A DNA stretch of 62,913 nucleotides, from positions 1 to 62,913 of the forward strand of contig MHSR01000016.1 in NCBI GenBank assembly GCA_001822815.1, read 5' to 3'. Below the pieces are notes generated by a model. It had not been told where the DNA came from and did no database searches. It saw nothing but the letters and a program-made list of their open reading frames with translations. Each line of letters starts with the position of its first letter. Positions within the stretch are counted from its first letter, which is position 1. Of the stretch, positions 2,962 through 53,677 are shown one piece after another. The position numbers were made by a program, and so were the translations under genes. Source of the DNA: Candidatus Terrybacteria bacterium RIFCSPHIGHO2_01_FULL_43_35. Lineage in GTDB: Bacteria; Patescibacteriota; Minisyncoccia; Terrybacterales; GWB1-40-14.

Positions 2962-4035
2962 TTATAAATTTATTGCCTGCAGATCCTTTACTATTTCTTC
3001 AATATTTCCTTCCATGATGCTGGCAATATTATGCCAGCTTTTTTTTATACGGTGGTCGGTAACGCGGTCCTGCGGGAAATTATAGGTGCGTATTTTATCT
3101 GATCGGTCTCCGCCTCCGACTTGGGTTTTGTGTATTTCGCTTTTCGCTTTCGCTTCCTCCTCTTCTTTAAGGGCAAGTAGTTTTGAGCGCAAGATAGACA
3201 TAGCCGCTTCCTTATTAGATTGTTGGGTGCGTTCTTTCTGGGAGGTAATGATTATGCCGGTGGGTAAATGTATTAAACGCACGGCTGTTTCTCGTTTGTT
3301 TACGTTTTGTCCACCTGGTCCGGTTGCGCGCTGAACATCTATTCTTATATCTTGTGGTTTTATCTCCAAATCCGTTTCTTGCGCTTCGGGGATAACCATT
3401 ACAGTAACCGTAGAAGTGTGTAGGCGGCCGCTTTTTTCGGTTTCGGGTACGCGTTGAACGCGGTGCACGCCGGATTCCGTTTTTAGTTTTTTGTATGCAT
3501 CTCCCCCCCTTATTATAAAAATCGCTTCTTTTTGTCCGCCAATTGATGTGTTGTTATCTTCAACGAGCTGTGTTTTCCATCCCGATTTTTCAGCGAATTT
3601 GATATACATCCGCGTTATTTCTCCGGCAAACAATGCAGCTTCATCTCCCCCAGCCCCCGGCCTTATTTCCATGACAATCCCTTCTTTTTCTGTTGCGATC
3701 CTTGAGGTCTGTCCATTAACCAACGCGGCAATTTTTTTCTCTATAGTATTTTTTTCCTCCTGCGCCATGGCATTGAGTTCCGCATCCTTTTCTGTAGCTA
3801 TAAGGTTTTTGATATCTTCAAGTTCTTTTTTCAATCTTTCTTCTTCCTCTTTTATTTTTATAGTCTGTCCAAGTTGCTTGAGCCGCCGGCCAAGTTCAGC
3901 CAAATCTTTAGGACGAGAAAGAAGCTCAGGCCTTCGGCTCTGAGAACTTTCAGGCTCGATGAGATCGCTGAGCTTTGTTTCTAAATCGCCGTATTCCGAT
4001 TTTATTTCTTCAAGAGTGCGTTCGTCTTGACTCAT
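2962..4035 (-). CDS. prfA: peptide chain release factor 1
   Basis: GPGGQNVNK (GGQ), PET (RF1 PxT), [27 protein letters not shown]; carries an 11-aa insertion near the N-terminus. Confidence 0.95.
3931..3963. repeat. 33-bp in-frame repeat-derived insertion in prfA
   Basis: 3924-3965 matches intergenic 19009-19050 at 34/42 nt. It encodes [11 protein letters not shown] between SD and PELLS. Confidence 0.75.
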
Positions 4036-4328
4036 ACCTTTTTGCCCTCATTCCGTGCGGCTTGACGGCGCGCTTCGCGCTTAGCCATTTTGTGTTTTTT
4101 GCCGCCACGCATAGAAGCCAAAGACTTCTTTTTGCCCATGCGTTCTTTGAACTTCTCAACTTTACCAGCTGTATCTATAACTTTGGCCTTGCCGCTGAAG
4201 AACGGATGGCAATTGGAACAGACTTCTATGTTTATTTCTTCAAGGGTGGAACCCACGGTGAATTGATTTCCGCAGGCGCATTTAACCTTAGCTTGAGGAA
4301 AATAGGTTGGATGGATAGCGCTTTTCAT
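4032..4328 (-). CDS. rpmE: 50S ribosomal protein L31 (Zn-binding type) with basic C-terminal tail
   Basis: MKSAIHPTY..., CACG and [10 protein letters not shown]; ATG at 4328. Confidence 0.95.
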
Positions 4329-4401
4329 GTTTAGTTTTATAGCAAAAACACTGTGTTTTGGCAATACAGACACAAAAGAAAAAGGCCCTTTTTAAGGAGC
4401 C

Positions 4402-7659: not shown

Positions 7660-7764
7660 TCCCGCCTCTTGCGCCGGAGTAGCTCAGAGGCAGAGCAATT
7701 GTTTTGTAAACAATAGGTCGTGAGTTCGATTCTCACCTCCGGCTCATCGGCGCAAGAGGCGGGA
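7660..7764. repeat. 17-bp perfect inverted repeat pair (inner layer)
   Basis: TCCCGCCTCTTGCGCCG (7660-7676) / CGGCGCAAGAGGCGGGA (7748-7764). Confidence 0.95.
7673..7744 (+). tRNA. tRNA-Thr(UGU), intact
   Basis: Full cloverleaf: GCCGGAG/CTCCGGC, GCTC/GAGC, ATTGT-TT-TGT-AA-ACAAT, GTGAG-TTCGATT-CTCAC, discriminator T; CCA not fully encoded. Confidence 0.95.
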
Positions 7765-7892
7765 TAAACAGCAGGTCGTGAGTTCAAAGCTCACCCTCGG
7801 CTCCACGGCATTTGTAACGGGATAAACAGGTCGCCCCGCAATTGCGGGGCCGCTGGCTCATATTCCTATTTGATTTTTAAAACATTAAGTAG

Positions 7893-18750: not shown

Positions 18751-18822
18751 GCCGATGTAGCTCAGTGGTAGAGCAACTCCATGGTAAGGAGTAGGTCGTC
18801 AGTTCAATCCTGACCATCGGCT
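18751..18822 (+). tRNA. tRNA-Thr(GGU)
   Basis: GCCGATG/CATCGGC, ACTCC-AT-GGT-AA-GGAGT, GTCAG-TTCAATC-CTGAC. Confidence 0.95.
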
Positions 18823-18877
18823 CAAATTTGCAAAGCAAATTTGCCCTGAATTGATTGAAGGGCTACATAAATTAAAA

Positions 18878-19066
18878 TAATCCCTCGTCGCTCCGCTCCT
18901 CGGGTCGTTCAGACTCTGAAGAGTCTTCAGACTCAAAGAGATGCAAGTTGTTGCAACCGCGAGCAGGCTCGCGAGCAAATTTAATAAATAAAGGTAATCC
19001 TTCGCTTTGCTCAGGTCTTCGACTCCGAAAAGTCTCAGACTCGAGGAGATGCAACGTGGTTGTATC
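18878..19066. repeat. two imperfect tandem copies of a composite palindromic element upstream of rpmG
   Basis: Unit 1 (18878-18958) and unit 2 (18995-19066) share TAATCC.TCG...GCTC..GG followed by TTC.GACTC.GAA.AGTC.TCAGACTC.A.GAGATGCAA. Confidence 0.75.
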
Positions 19067-19097
19067 CTCTCGCACGGCTCAAGGACAACCACGGCAT

Positions 19098-19256
19098 ATG
19101 CCTCAAGAAAATCTAATTAAAATGCAGTGTACGGTTTGTAAGCGTTTCAACTATTATACTTACAAGAACCGCAAAAAAGTTGAAAGAAAGCTTGAATACA
19201 AAAAGTTTTGTAAATCTTGCCGCAAACACACCAAACATAAAGAAGCTAAACGGTAG
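19098..19256 (+). CDS. rpmG: 50S ribosomal protein L33
   Basis: MPQENLIKMQCTVC...NYYTYKNRKK...LEYKKFCKSCRKHTKHKE; ATG at 19098. Confidence 0.95.
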   Translation: MPQENLIKMQCTVCKRFNYYTYKNRKKVERKLEYKKFCKSCRKHTKHKEAKR

Positions 19257-19598: not shown

Positions 19599-21818
19599 AT
19601 GGCTGGTAAAACGCAGTTCTGGACCGATGAACGCAAGAGCGCTTTGGCTCTGGCCACATCTGATGAACAGATGACAACCTTGTTCCCGAATAAATCAATC
19701 GCAAATCTTCGAAACCGGCGTAGTATTTTCCGTAAGCAACTTGGTTTGACTCCAGCCAAAGTCAAAATTACGGTGGACAATCTGGAGAAGCGCCAGAAAC
19801 TTCTTGAGATTCTCAAGAAGGGTCCGGCGCGCGATAAGGATCTTTCCGAAGCCTTGGGCGTCAGTACTGCTGGCGTTTGGGACCTTGCGGATGCCTTACA
19901 GCGTTCTGGTTACGTTATTCGTATAGAAGATAATGTTCTGCACTTTATGGGGCAGCAGAAGACCTCGCGGCGTACTATCGTACCCTCGTTTCATCCCAAA
20001 CACCGTATTATTAAGATCGCGGTTGTTTCTGACACGCGTATTGGTTCTAGATACTACCAAGGAGATCTTCACGCTACGGTTATCGCCAAATGCGAGGCTG
20101 AAGACGTAGACATTATGTTGCATGCCGGCAATGTGTTTGGCGGTAAGGTTACGACAAAATACAAGGATGATAACTTCTGTCAGCTTGCTGAAGAGCAGGT
20201 AGAAGAAGCTGTGGCCTACTGGCCGCATTCGTCCAAATTCCGACAGTACTTGCTTGCCGGTCAGACTGACTTGTCATTCTCTACGGGTAAAGATGCCGGA
20301 CGAGACATGCTTACTATGCTCGTGCAGCAAGCTTCAGAAGCTGATTCTAAGGACGAAGGCGACCTTGTTGTTGCCGGCGCGCTTAAACAAGACTTCCAGT
20401 TTCGTAATGTCCGCGTGCGTCTTATGCATCCAATGACTGATCGACCTATCTACGCTAAGAGCTACCGGCCACAGAGCATTTTGCGGAGTATTGCGACATC
20501 CGTCCAGCAGTTTGGCAGCGCCAAACGCGAAAAGCCGGATATCGTTATCATGGGTGGTTTCGGCGTAGGCGCGGCACTGCGCAAGCGTTACGGAATCAGG
20601 ACATTCCTGGTTCCCTCGTTGCAGTCGCCGACAACCCGTCAGTCTGAACATGAAATTGCTCCGGAAATAGGCTTTGCGATATTCACGCTTAAGTTCAACA
20701 AAGATGGAAATCTGGATGAAGTAATTCCAGAGTTCTTCAACCTGAACCCGCATCATACGCCTCAAGACAATCATTTGGTTGGTGTTAACGATCTCAAATG
20801 CGATTTGTCCGAGCAGGAGCAGGCGCTTGTCGCTGAACTTATGTCCGGTACATTCACCAGCGAAGGCCAGCTTTCCCGGCGTCTCAACGTGAGCCACAAG
20901 GATGTTCGTAGCTTACTTGAACGCATTTCCGCTTGCGGACTCTCTCCGCAAACGGTGGCCGGTTCTACGAATATCATTTTGAACAGAGCGCATCGCGATT
21001 CTTACAAAGCTCTTCCTTTGAGTATTTTTGACGGCATAACCCTTAAGGCTGCATTCGCTTCCGACACGCATCTTTGCAGTAAGTGGGAACGCTTGCCCGC
21101 GCTCCGTGAAGCGTATTGCATCATGGATAACGAAGATGTTGTGGGTCCATATCACGCTGGTGACTTTGGCGACGGAGCTGGTTTTACCGGCTACCGCGGT
21201 CATAGAGATGACGTGGAACCCGCAGGTATTACTGATCAGCAGAAGAAGATGGTTGAGGAATATCCGCGTCGTAAGAAGATAGACTCCCTTACTGGCAAGC
21301 CAGAGATGACCAGGGTCATCATGGGCAACCACGATGCCTGGGCCCTTACGGCTTCTGGGTATCACGTGCTCCACGCGCTTGAAGAACTTCGTCCAGACAT
21401 CAAGTTTGTTGGTGGTCCGGAGGAGACAAGCGGTATTGTTGACGAATACGGGTTTAACATCCGGCTGTATCATCCGGCGGGTGGCGGTTCGTATGCCGAT
21501 AGCTTCAAGCTCCAGCGTGGTCTGGAAGACGAACTAAACTATGAGTCCAATATCTTAGATGAACATCTCAACGATATTGCGGATAAAGCCTCATCGTTTG
21601 ATGTGTTCGCGGTGGGCCATTACCACTTCTTCACAGCAATGTTCACCATGGGCGTTGCCGCGATGATGCTTCCTTCGTTCAAGGGCAAGGACCGTTTCCA
21701 CAAGGAACATTGGCTTACGCCCGATATCGGTTTTGTTATCGCCGAACTGACCAAAGATGCGCAAGGGAACCTAATTCGGTTTGCCCCGCGTTTCTTCGAT
21801 CTTTCGCACATTAAATAG
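19599..21818 (+). CDS. tandem HTH + calcineurin-like metallophosphoesterase fusion (N-terminal copy degenerate)
   Basis: Second domain has SDTH, HAGDFGDG, GNHD, HP, GHYH. First has SDTR, HAGNVFGG, GQTD, HP, GGF. Each is preceded by an HTH-like segment. SD AAGGAG before ATG 19599. Confidence 0.8.
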   Translation: MAGKTQFWTDERKSALALATSDEQMTTLFPNKSIANLRNRRSIFRKQLGLTPAKVKITVDNLEKRQKLLEILKKGPARDKDLSEALGVSTAGVWDLADALQRSGYVIRIEDNVLHFMGQQKTSRRTIVPSFHPKHRIIKIAVVSDTRIGSRYYQGDLHATVIAKCEAEDVDIMLHAGNVFGGKVTTKYKDDNFCQLAEEQVEEAVAYWPHSSKFRQYLLAGQTDLSFSTGKDAGRDMLTMLVQQASEADSKDEGDLVVAGALKQDFQFRNVRVRLMHPMTDRPIYAKSYRPQSILRSIATSVQQFGSAKREKPDIVIMGGFGVGAALRKRYGIRTFLVPSLQSPTTRQSEHEIAPEIGFAIFTLKFNKDGNLDEVIPEFFNLNPHHTPQDNHLVGVNDLKCDLSEQEQALVAELMSGTFTSEGQLSRRLNVSHKDVRSLLERISACGLSPQTVAGSTNIILNRAHRDSYKALPLSIFDGITLKAAFASDTHLCSKWERLPALREAYCIMDNEDVVGPYHAGDFGDGAGFTGYRGHRDDVEPAGITDQQKKMVEEYPRRKKIDSLTGKPEMTRVIMGNHDAWALTASGYHVLHALEELRPDIKFVGGPEETSGIVDEYGFNIRLYHPAGGGSYADSFKLQRGLEDELNYESNILDEHLNDIADKASSFDVFAVGHYHFFTAMFTMGVAAMMLPSFKGKDRFHKEHWLTPDIGFVIAELTKDAQGNLIRFAPRFFDLSHIK

Positions 21819-32127: not shown

Positions 32128-32157
32128 AAGCCCGCAGTAAAGTTTACTGCGGGTTTT
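32128..32157 (+). terminator. intrinsic terminator
   Basis: CCCGCAGTAAA-G-TTTACTGCGGG followed by TTTT. Confidence 0.75.
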
Positions 32158-44398: not shown

Positions 44399-47353
44399 AT
44401 GCCTGCCAACAAAAAAATTACAAAAAATGTTATTTCCATTCGCGGCGCCCGAGTGCATAACCTGAAGAATATAGACGTAGATATCCCGCGCAATAAACTT
44501 ACGGTCATAACCGGGCTTTCGGGTTCGGGCAAGTCGTCTTTGGCGTTTGATACGCTCTATGCTGATGGTCAAAGGCGTTATGTGGAGTCATTATCTGCTT
44601 ACGCACGGCAATTTTTAGGTGTCATGGAAAAGCCGGATGTAGATAATATTGAGGGTATTTCTCCGGCTATTTCCATAGATCAAAAAAGTGTTTCCAAAAA
44701 CCCGCGTTCAACAGTCGGCACGATAACTGAAATTTATGATTATTTGCGTCTTCTTTTTGCGCGCGTGGGTATCCCACATTGTCCAAAATGCGGTCGTGAA
44801 GTTAAGCGGCAAAGCGCCGCACAAATCATGAATCAAATTTTGGCTTTGCCCGCAAAAACGCCGATAGTCATTTTGGCTCCTGTTATCCGTGGCAAAAAAG
44901 GCGAGCACAAAAGCGTTATTGAAGAAATTGCCCGCGCGGGTTTTAGTCGCGTGCGAATTAATGGAGAAATATTACGCGTTGAAGATGCTCAAAATAAATC
45001 GTTAGCCAGGTATAAAATTCACGATATAGAAGTTGTGGTAGATAGATTTGAAGTTGGACGTTCCGCCGATGACCGCATGCGCTTGGCTTCTTCGGTTGAA
45101 ACAGCTCTTAAAATGGGCAACGGCATAATTATTGTGAATATCCAGCAGGATATTCATCCCGAGCGCAGGCGAGGGATTACACTTAATAACACAAAGGAAA
45201 AAACCGACATGATTTTTTCGGAGATGTTTGCCTGCGAGCATTGCGGGATAAATTTACCCGAGTTGGAACCGCGTACCTTTTCTTTCAACAGCCCACATGG
45301 CGCATGTCCAAAATGCACCGGTATTGGTTATCAGCTTGATGTTGATTCTGAGCTTGTTGTGCCCAACCCCAGACTTACTATTGCCGAAGGAGCTATACGC
45401 CCGTGGATGGCGGCATCGCACAGGTTAGGCAGGCAATCATGGTACTGGTGGATGCTTTCGGAATTCTCCGATAGAAAAGGTTTTTCCTTGAACGATCCGT
45501 GGTTAAAACTACCCAAGGGGATACAGCAAGAAATTTTATTTGGCGAAAAGCAAGAAGAAAAAAAAGAAGGTCTGCTTGCCCTTCGAAGTCTTGACGAAGA
45601 AGGGGCTAAATTTGAAGGCGTGGTACCAAATCTTCTGCGCCGTTATCAGGCCAGCGATTCTGACTGGACCAGAGCTGAGATAGAGAAATATATGGTTATT
45701 AAGGAGTGCTCGGTGTGTAAAGGTAAACGCCTACGCCTAGAGGCACTTGCGGTTACGGTTGGAGGAAGGTCAATTGATGTGGTGACAGCTTTGAGTATTA
45801 AAGATGCGCAGCGTTTTTTTGGCGATTTATCCTCAAGGCTTTCGAAAAATCATAAAATAATCGCGCGCATGATAGTAAAAGAAGTCATTAACCGTCTGCA
45901 ATTTTTGATTGATGTCGGCTTGGATTATCTAACTTTAGATCGTTCGGCACAAACTTTATCCGGCGGGGAGGGCCAGAGAATACGTTTGGCTACTCAAATA
46001 GGTACGCGTTTGACCGGTGTACTTTATATACTTGATGAGCCTTCGGTTGGTTTGCATCCACGCGATCAGGCTAGGCTTATTAAAACGCTTAAAGACTTGC
46101 GCGACTTAGGCAATACGGTCGTTGTGGTGGAACACGATCCGCAGACCATTCTTGCGGCCGATTGGGTTATAGATGTTGGTCCAGCGGCAGGTAAACACGG
46201 CGGAAGAATAGTTTTCACCGGAACGGCAAAAGAACTGCTTAAGGCTAAAACATTGACCGGAGAGTATCTCGCCGGCAAAAAACATGTCGGTAGAGCGGAA
46301 AGCAAGATAGTTGAACAAGCGATTTACCGTAATCCCTCGGCCAAAAAAGACAACGAAAACAAAAGCCTCATTATTTATGGCGCCAAGGAACATAATCTCA
46401 AGAATATTGACGTGAAGATTCCTATCGGAAAATTTGTCTGTTTAACCGGCGTTTCTGGTTCTGGAAAATCAACTCTTCTTAATGACATTTTAGCCCGCGC
46501 ATTGCTGAAACATTTCTGGAATGCAAAAGAAATGCCCGGCAAACATAGCCGCATCTTGGGCATAGAAAATATTGATAAGGCTATAGTTATTGATCAGTCG
46601 CCCATAGGCCGCACGCCTCGTTCAAATCCCGCGACATATACAGGTGCTTTTACCATCATCCGTACTCTTTTTGCCGCAACCAAAGAAGCCAAAGTAAGGG
46701 GCTATGGGCCAGGCAGGTTTTCTTTTAACGTTAAGGGCGGACGATGCGAGAATTGTCAGGGTGAAGGCATGCGTAAAATAGAGATGCAGTTTTTGGCTGA
46801 AGTTTGGGTTGAATGCGAAGAATGTCATGGCACGCGCTATAATAAAGATGCTTTAGAAATAACATGGCGGGGCAAAAATATAGCCCAAATATTAGAAATG
46901 ACCGTTGAAGAAGCCTTTAAATTCTTTGCCGGCATCCCCACCATTACCGCAAAACTGCGCACCTTAAACGATGTTGGCTTGGGCTATATAAACTTTGGCC
47001 AGTCGGCAACAACTTTATCTGGCGGGGAGGCACAACGCATAAAGTTATCTACTGAGCTGGCAAGACGCACTACCGGCAAAACTCTTTATATATTGGACGA
47101 GCCCACTACCGGCTTGCATTTCGCCGATATAGATAAATTACTGGGCATCCTGCGCGGTTTGGTAAATTTAGGCAATACAGTTTTGGTGATAGAACACAAT
47201 ATGGATGTCATCAAATGCGCCGATTGGGTTATTGACTTGGGACCTGAAGGTGGAGATCAAGGCGGCAGAATTATTGCCGAAGGCACGGTAAAAGAGATCG
47301 CCAAAAATAAGAATAGTTATACGGGACAATATCTCAAGAATTTGGAATTTTGA
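44399..47353 (+). CDS. uvrA: excinuclease ABC subunit A
   Basis: [12 protein letters not shown], Zn fingers, [31 protein letters not shown]; ATG at 44399. Confidence 0.97.
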
Positions 47354-53647: not shown

Positions 53648-53677
53648 AAAAAACACCCCGCATATGCGGGGTGTTTT
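53648..53677. terminator. bidirectional terminator
   Basis: AAAACACCCCGC-AT-ATGCGGGGTGTTTT between convergent genes. Confidence 0.8.

Follow-up and report, generated by a model that had tools for sequence, protein, structure and literature searches.

Why does peptide chain release factor 1 (RF1) of a Parcubacteria bacterium carry 11 residues that its relatives lack? The window analysed here is positions 1 to 62,913 of contig MHSR01000016.1, from a bacterium of the Parcubacteria (Patescibacteria, or candidate phyla radiation, CPR) found in groundwater and soil metagenomes. An earlier note on this DNA had described the LSDPE segment of RF1, encoded by prfA, as split by 11 aa (33 bp), had matched the extra stretch to an intergenic element elsewhere in the window, and had proposed that a repeat was here being turned into peptide. 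Our analysis supports this repeat-to-peptide reading: the extra residues are very probably encoded by a copy of a 33-nt, gene-less repeat (hereafter, the module) that was inserted between CTCAG and G and is carried by the protein as a tolerated passenger.

The 33-nt indel in prfA

Protein alignments, together with a DNA alignment to the prfA genes of two relatives, reveal a clean insertion of 33 nt, or 11 aa. It occupies positions 3931-3963 or, equivalently, 3930-3962, owing to a 1-nt G ambiguity, and in the DNA alignment it appears as one 33-nt gap between conserved CTCAG(C/T)GAT and CCTGAGCTT on the coding strand. Among 20 aligned RF1 sequences, the 11 residues are present only in the RF1 of the window and in a truncated copy of the same protein, and relatives at 63-70% RF1 identity read KQLSD-PELFSRP without them. 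Across Patescibacteria, the segment that corresponds to residues 18-46 measures 18 residues in 108 of 118 RF1s and 29 residues in the RF1 of the window. The split of the LSDPE segment is thus confirmed as a clean indel relative to relatives, and an equally long loop at this place is not general.

The insertion is also seen in independent data. Three independent sequencing runs yielded 5.8-kb contigs that cover positions 3800-4100 with 0 differences, which shows that the RF1 insert is no assembly artefact, and the identical RF1 protein is on record from 15 contigs. The open reading frame (ORF) itself matches the NCBIfam models PRK00591 (3.9e-117, 391 bits) and TIGR00019 (2e-110, 369 bits); these scores lie slightly under the curated cut-offs of 400 and 423, which fits a divergent CPR sequence bearing an insert. 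Pfam identifies PCRF and RF-1 domains in the product, the top PDB matches are RF1 chains, and neither the PET tripeptide (at the PxT position for stop-codon recognition) nor the GGQ motif is disrupted, both falling in invariant alignment columns.

One other RF1 among the 118, P0023 from another Parcubacteria genome (L138:1501-2571 in our numbering of metagenome loci), has a large insertion in the loop. This second, independent insertion of 10 aa (SFAKATADKQ) lies 1-2 residues upstream in the same loop and is encoded by a GC-rich, hairpin-like stretch, TTGTCC TCCTTTGCCAAGGCTACGGC GGACAA, inside an AT-rich gene. This insertion is probably a member of a different family of small palindromic repeats.

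The repeat family and its target sites

The similarity from which the earlier note started was recomputed with the same count: 3924-3965 and 19009-19050, compared on the same strand, share 34 of 42 nt. When the window was compared with itself by BLAST, all against all and scored +1/-1, this 42-nt pair reached E = 6e-4 and ranked seventh among the non-self pairs, behind paralogues, tRNAs and self-palindromes, and with blastn-short scoring it reached E = 3.8-13 only. Taken alone, the pairwise match is suggestive and not decisive. Metagenomes were scanned with the pattern GNCTTCGNCTCNNNNNNNNNTCAGNCTCGANGA, in which the 20 positions common to both window copies were kept and the other 13 were left as N. 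At least 118 loci matched, with 105 distinct contexts among the matches listed after duplicate removal (the listed contexts), set against a chance yield that we estimate at about 2 for about 1e12 bases; a viral contig collection scanned with the same pattern gave 0 matches.

Although 13 positions of the pattern were free to vary, they are almost invariant across the listed copies. The identical 33-mer, which we refer to as the v1 consensus (GTCTTCGACTCCGAGGTCGCTCAGACTCGAGGA), is found in 62 of the 105 listed contexts, and a second subtype has the v2 consensus GCCTTCGGCTCTGAGGCCGCTCAGGCTCGAAGA. At positions 2, 8, 25, 12 and 31, the haplotype T,A,A,C,G is present in 82 listed contexts and C,G,G,T,A/T in 16, with five rarer combinations in the remaining 7. 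With essentially two haplotypes in the family, one change from T-A to C-G at positions 2 and 25 is all the covariation signal available. Flanking sequences of the listed contexts diverge immediately outside the 33-mer, the following G excepted, and the family boundaries defined by this divergence coincide with the boundaries of the RF1 indel defined by protein and DNA alignment. The module is an imperfect palindrome and encodes no gene.

The copy in RF1, read on the minus strand, corresponds to RF1 residues 25-35 and matches the v2 consensus at 28 of 33 positions. Four of the five differences fall in the central loop (positions 16, 17, 19 and 20), and the fifth, T31, is common to loci L049 and L087. 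Indeed, at positions 2, 8, 25, 12 and 31 the RF1 copy reads C,G,G,T,T, exactly as those two loci do, and these five v2 diagnostic bases fall at positions left free in the search pattern. Judged by sequence comparison, the RF1 insert is a slightly decayed copy of the dispersed 33-nt family. An nhmmer profile built from metagenome copies returned 3930-3963 at E = 1e-8 (3e-10 with a v2-only profile) and 19015-19048 at E = 4e-10, both at full length and with no further convincing match in the window. The two window copies had themselves supplied the pattern for the scan, so these E-values are in part circular.

Evidence that does not rest on this pattern comes from three metagenome runs, in which other contigs match only 3922/3929-3963/3967 at 85-90% identity before continuing into unrelated sequence, and in which summed depth over this interval rises 10-25 fold. 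The module is abundant in CPR and groundwater metagenomes. Accordingly, the repeat proposed in the earlier note stands as a dispersed family, while its unit is the 33-mer 3930-3962 and not the 42-mer: GCTCAG to the left and GAT to the right of the RF1 module are target sequence and lie outside the unit.

The intergenic copy at 19015-19047 lies between tRNA-Thr(GGU) and rpmG, within a carrier repeat, and is flanked by ...TCCTTCGCTTTGCTCAG^GATGC... (also given as ...TTGCTCAG^GATGC...; here and below a caret marks the edge of the module or its point of insertion). Metagenome carriers with the same GCTCAG^GAT flanks include L053, L071 and L133. A third, degenerate unit in the same spacer is 78% identical over 55 nt to 19021-19074 and contains the motif TCAGACTCAAAGAG with 2 mismatches; nhmmer detects it weakly (E = 0.28 at 18912-18940). 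The whole 275-nt spacer (18824-19098) holds two carrier-like units (TAATCC[C/T]TCG...), each with a module-like insert. In addition, the RF1 copy (v2) and the intergenic copy (v1) share A16, A17 and T19, states that are rare in the family (13, 4 and 8 of the 105 listed contexts, respectively), a possible sign that copies of the module in this genome have exchanged sequence or been homogenised.

Insertion sites of the family are not random in sequence. CTCAG is the upstream 5-mer in 29 of the 105 listed contexts, as compared with about 0.1 expected by chance, and the base after the module is G in 102 of them, making CTCAG^G the commonest insertion context. Some copies are nested in their own kind, where they directly follow the CTCAG at positions 20-24 inside another copy (e.g. 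L097 and L125), and others occupy the exact midpoint of unrelated hairpins, as in CCTGCCTGCCG^GCAGGCAGG and CCCCGCAGCAA^GCTGCGGGG. When the module was removed in silico, a perfect stem of at least 8 bp was found at the junction in 9.7% of empty sites, compared with 0.4% of random positions in the same loci. All eight distinct listed loci with two genuine copies have them in the same orientation, and all three copies in the window are on the plus strand.

The site in prfA has both the CTCAG flank and the hairpin. Its empty form, AAGCTCAG^GATCG CTGAGCTT, is a perfect 8-bp stem with the junction directly 3' of CTCAG, and on the other strand the palindrome consists of the codons AAG CTC AGC GAT CCT GAG CTT (KLSDPEL). 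The filled site reads AAGCTCAG^module^GATCGCTGAGCTT, which differs from the empty site by 33 nt, with no target duplication and only the 1-nt G ambiguity. Uninterrupted prfA genes of relatives have GCTCAG^GATCACTGAG at the site, from which it follows that CTCAG predates the RF1 insertion, as the earlier note had suspected when it pointed to a flank-like sequence already present in the gene.

In-frame copies and the RF1 structure

We next consider how often the module is found within genes. Stop-free frames of at least 150 codons hold 27% of the listed copies and 66% of random positions in the same loci, an under-representation indicating that the family is mainly intergenic. Copies that do fall in such long frames lie in real genes, and the hosts identified with Pfam are RpoC, IF-2, phosphoglycerate kinase (PGK), DinB, TsaD, enolase, a class II aminoacyl-tRNA synthetase-like protein, RsmH, a pseudouridine synthase and a GT1 glycosyltransferase. 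A Pfam match runs across the insert or flanks it on both sides in 9 of these 10 hosts; the RpoC copy lies about 100 residues past the last Pfam domain. Five of the six reading frames are open in v1 and four of six in v2, and recurrent module peptides include VFDSEVAQTRG, LRLRGRSDSR, SSSLSDLGVED and LESERPRSRR. In the frame used by RF1, v2 encodes FEPERPQSRR, and a PGK copy in that same frame reads LFEPEPQSRRPE. Two in-frame copies each were observed in PGK (L056:6898-8199) and IF-2 (L107:690-2396), and one of the IF-2 copies is nested in a larger repeat-derived insert of the G domain (...RGTLRQAQ^VFDSEVAQTRG^GDTASNGR...). The repeat-to-peptide process that the earlier note assigned to the lineage is therefore seen as in-frame copies in CPR housekeeping genes, and the ground covered is the window (two solid copies and one degenerate copy) and the metagenomes.

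RF1 domain 1 is an N-terminal helical bundle that lies far from both the codon-recognition loop with PxT and the catalytic loop with GGQ. An AlphaFold2 model of RF1 was computed from the 20-sequence alignment (mean predicted local distance difference test score, pLDDT, 76.5). It contains a helix at residues 8-24, a coil at residues 25-41 (pLDDT <50 at residues 26-39) and a second helix at residues 42-81, so that the insert (residues 25-35) is predicted to extend the first inter-helix loop of domain 1. The earlier note had proposed checking for a surface loop of domain 1; the model places the insert in a domain 1 loop, as low-confidence coil between the first two helices. On this model, the insert is probably a hydrophilic, disordered surface loop and a tolerated passenger of RF1.

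Table 1. Positions in the window of the module copies, the target hairpin in prfA and the host locus
Feature	Positions	Strand	Evidence
33-nt hairpin module in prfA, subtype v2, GCCTTCGGCTCTGAGAACTTTCAGGCTCGATGA	3930..3962 (or 3931-3963)	+	33-nt gap relative to relatives; match to v2 consensus
Left arm of the pre-insertion target hairpin, AAGCTCAG, last five bases CTCAG	3922..3929	+	
GATCG loop and right arm CTGAGCTT of the target hairpin before insertion; coding strand corresponds to (K)LSD codons	3963..3975	+	
Intergenic 33-nt module copy, subtype v1, diverged loop, GTCTTCGACTCCGAAAAGTCTCAGACTCGAGGA	19015..19047	+	nhmmer E = 4e-10, full model
Degenerate unit related to the module but longer, GTCGTTCAGACTCTGAAGAGTCTTCAGACTCAAAGA, in another carrier-like context of the same spacer	18908..18946	+	Weak membership
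prfA, peptide chain release factor 1, 357 aa	2962..4035	-	NCBIfam, Pfam and PDB matches
rpmE, ribosomal protein L31, directly upstream of prfA	4032..4373	-	ORF list

The order rpmE-prfA is conserved in relatives, with the L31 gene upstream of prfA in L138-L141. In many bacteria tuf lies between thrT and rpmG; in the window there is no tuf between these two genes. Rfam, searched with the whole window, returned four tRNAs only and no match at either module copy. Several other repeats were observed. Tandem, diverged paralogous segments occupy 44444-47295 (46970-47295 is 61% identical to 45911-46233 over 326 nt, and 46379-46470 is 65% identical to 44444-44535 over 92 nt). Downstream of tRNA-Thr(UGU), in the intervals 7673-7830 and 18751-18823, are tRNA-like partial repeats (75% identity over 65 nt between 7765-7829 and 7707-7771; 79% between 18785-18823 and 7765-7803), which suggests nested or duplicated tRNA fragments. 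Self-complementary palindromes are present at 53650-53677 (perfect, 28 nt), 19790-19830 (imperfect, 41 nt) and 32128-32156 (imperfect, 29 nt), and their sequences are unrelated to the 33-nt module.

Origin of the insert and comparison with known repeats

Taken together, these data point to the following course of events. The module would have entered prfA after the lineage split from the sampled relatives (at most 70% RF1 identity), landing between CTCAG and G without target-site duplication. The KLSDPEL codons happen to form a hairpin, AAGCTCAG-GATCG-CTGAGCTT, like the usual targets of the module, which are hairpins, carrier repeats and its own internal CTCAG. As the unit is 33 nt long and four to five of its six frames are open, prfA stays in frame, and the module would be read as a hydrophilic loop extension between helices 1 and 2, far from PxT and GGQ, and would since have drifted in its central loop. 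The near-identity of most copies of the family implies recent spread. We infer that the RF1 insert is translated and that it is neutral. By analogy with known elements, insertion may be an active, strand-specific reaction directed by single strands or hairpins, either IS200/IS605-like or driven by a nuclease.

Besides the partial circularity of the nhmmer values, several results weigh against this account. About 70% of the listed contexts lack the CTCAG flank. In many listed contexts the module lies in a carrier repeat, and the two may have been amplified as one, so independent insertions number fewer than 105. When single copies were folded as DNA, their energies did not stand apart from those of shuffled sequences (z -0.6 to +0.6), and the thermodynamic stability of one copy is therefore no evidence. 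Three tiny metatranscriptomes, with a 0.00 share of words, lend no support to translation of the insert. ORF clustering within 2 kb of the 105 listed contexts uncovered no recurrent transposase-like family, and small GIY-YIG genes were near the module in only 3 of the 105. At one locus (L035:590-1895), three small GIY-YIG nuclease genes form a tandem array, the last two of them separated by a module copy (1468-1500); no ORF with a GIY-YIG motif is present in the window. GIY-YIG genes as candidate mobilising enzymes are a weak lead.

A different route into prfA would be short-patch gene conversion or template switching from a carrier with GCTCAG...GAT flanks, without a dedicated enzyme. All 9 bases around the empty RF1 site, GCTCAG^GAT, recur in the intergenic carrier (GCTCAG^GATGC) and in L021, L053, L059, L071, L087, L104 and L133, the absence of a transposase near the listed copies fits such copying, and so do the rare loop states A16, A17 and T19 common to the RF1 and intergenic copies. 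However, these two copies belong to different subtypes and differ at all five diagnostic positions, many copies have neither CTCAG nor GAT and sit exactly at other hairpin tips (the two unrelated hairpins given above), and the identical, sharp-edged 33-mer in 62 listed contexts suggests precise cutting and joining. We consider this route unlikely, albeit the most credible of the alternatives to insertion of a passenger module. In another reading the 34/42 likeness arose by chance, or the 11 residues came from slippage or duplication of neighbouring prfA codons with no tie to any repeat family, and the blastn-short values of 3.8-13 and a weak likeness, by eye, of PESSQSRR to the following PELLSRPK could be read in this way. 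Such an origin is extremely improbable given the 28/33 match to a consensus from more than 100 external copies, with identical length, boundaries and five diagnostic bases, and given the pile-up of repeat-type partial matches in independent metagenomes. Local tandem duplication of PESSQSRR/PELLSRPK was rejected, since without gaps the two DNA stretches are identical at only 10/24 positions and since the insert has its match in an external family.

It is also conceivable that the copy, once inserted, was recruited, and that the enlarged domain 1 loop is functional, for example in contact with the L11/L7-L12 stalk or RF3, or in regulation through mRNA structure. The insert is fixed in all assemblies seen (the identical protein from 15 contigs and the three runs without differences), and its central loop diverged from the consensus while the frame was kept. 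Yet the loop is short and length-invariant in 108 of 118 relatives, the region is predicted to be disordered (pLDDT <50), equivalent peptides occur in many unrelated proteins, and nothing points to conservation outside this one lineage, all of which makes recruitment improbable and leaves us with the module as a tolerated passenger.

Among described repeats, the functionally closest analogue of the module, compared by description, is the group of Rickettsia palindromic elements (RPE). RPE-1 to RPE-10 (Ogata et al. 2000) are described in PMC10969869 as elements of about 150 bp found in frame within housekeeping genes. The two resemble each other in being gene-less palindromic repeats located both between genes and in frame within housekeeping genes, the RPE host being a reduced-genome bacterium, and in contributing a conserved peptide that host proteins tolerate, which in RPE takes the form of extra surface peptides (PMC10969869). 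By the same source, however, RPE are about 150 bp in length and the module is 33 nt (11 aa), so by size the module is no member of RPE (PMC10969869). It differs further in its Patescibacteria/CPR host and in its site preference for CTCAG^G and hairpin tips, with no target duplication and with nesting in itself and in carriers.

Repetitive extragenic palindromic (REP) elements and REPINs, which are mobilised by RAYT (Y1) transposases, are imperfect palindromes of 20-40 nt, and the GTAG and CGTC super-families carry the unpaired tag GTAG or CGTC at one end (Di Nocera et al. 2013, PMC3733652). Like the module, REP elements exist in many copies, mostly outside genes with some intragenic, and are thought to move as single-stranded hairpins (PMC3733652). 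Neither GTAG nor CGTC is present on either strand of v1 or v2; unlike REPINs, module copies are usually solitary or nested and are not inverted doublets, and no RAYT-like gene recurs within 2 kb of the listed contexts. IS608 and other IS200/IS605 elements insert by ‘peel and paste’ 3' of a short target without duplication and prefer the lagging-strand template (PMC5027513, PMC3201880). The module would share with them, and with their miniature derivatives, insertion 3' of a short sequence without duplication, dependence on hairpins and co-orientation of copies. It differs in that IS608 has two different subterminal hairpins and encodes TnpA, whereas the module is one 33-nt hairpin, in that no Y1 transposase was seen near copies, and in that CTCAG flanks 28% of the listed contexts only.

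The NTS and other Ssn-related motifs (SRM) are short hairpin repeats in hundreds of copies that are associated with a small GIY-YIG site-specific nuclease of single-stranded DNA (Chenal et al. 2025, PMC11893778). The module is likewise a short hairpin repeat, and small GIY-YIG genes are near a few of its copies. The SRM consensus HGTCWY...RNCYNB (PMC11893778) was found in 0 of the 105 listed module contexts and in neither window copy, and in-frame insertions, as seen for the module, are not known to have been described for Ssn/NTS. Classification as a classical miniature inverted-repeat transposable element was rejected: the palindrome gives the module inverted-repeat-like ends, but there is no target-site duplication. 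Our literature search found no description of such elements in CPR/Patescibacteria. By comparison with these systems, the case resembles that of RPE, but in a new phylum and with a unit that is much smaller and prefers particular sites. More tentatively, and with somewhat less than even confidence, we propose that the 33-mer, a lone hairpin compatible with coding, with a length divisible by three and most of its frames open, could be among the smallest site-specific mobile DNAs known, pasted 3' of CTCAG at hairpin tips on one strand by an enzyme that may be a small GIY-YIG or HUH nuclease of CPR bacteria, and that coding sequences mimicking the target, like the KLSDPEL codons of RF1, are hit, so that disordered loops would steadily be added to essential proteins throughout CPR.

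In-frame colonisation of essential genes by selfish palindromic repeats has been known mainly from Rickettsia, and the present findings point to the same process in CPR with a unit of 33 nt and with a concrete landing rule drawn from the data, CTCAG^G in a hairpin. The RF1 case illustrates how a coding sequence becomes a landing site when it resembles the target hairpin. It would account for one of the many ‘CPR-specific’ loops of conserved proteins that have lacked an explanation, and such loops may be recognisable at the DNA level. It also indicates that a small insertion in a core marker of a metagenome-assembled genome may be genuine and need not be an assembly error. The insertion enzyme, if found, would be a compact, sequence- and structure-specific integrase or nuclease of single-stranded DNA.

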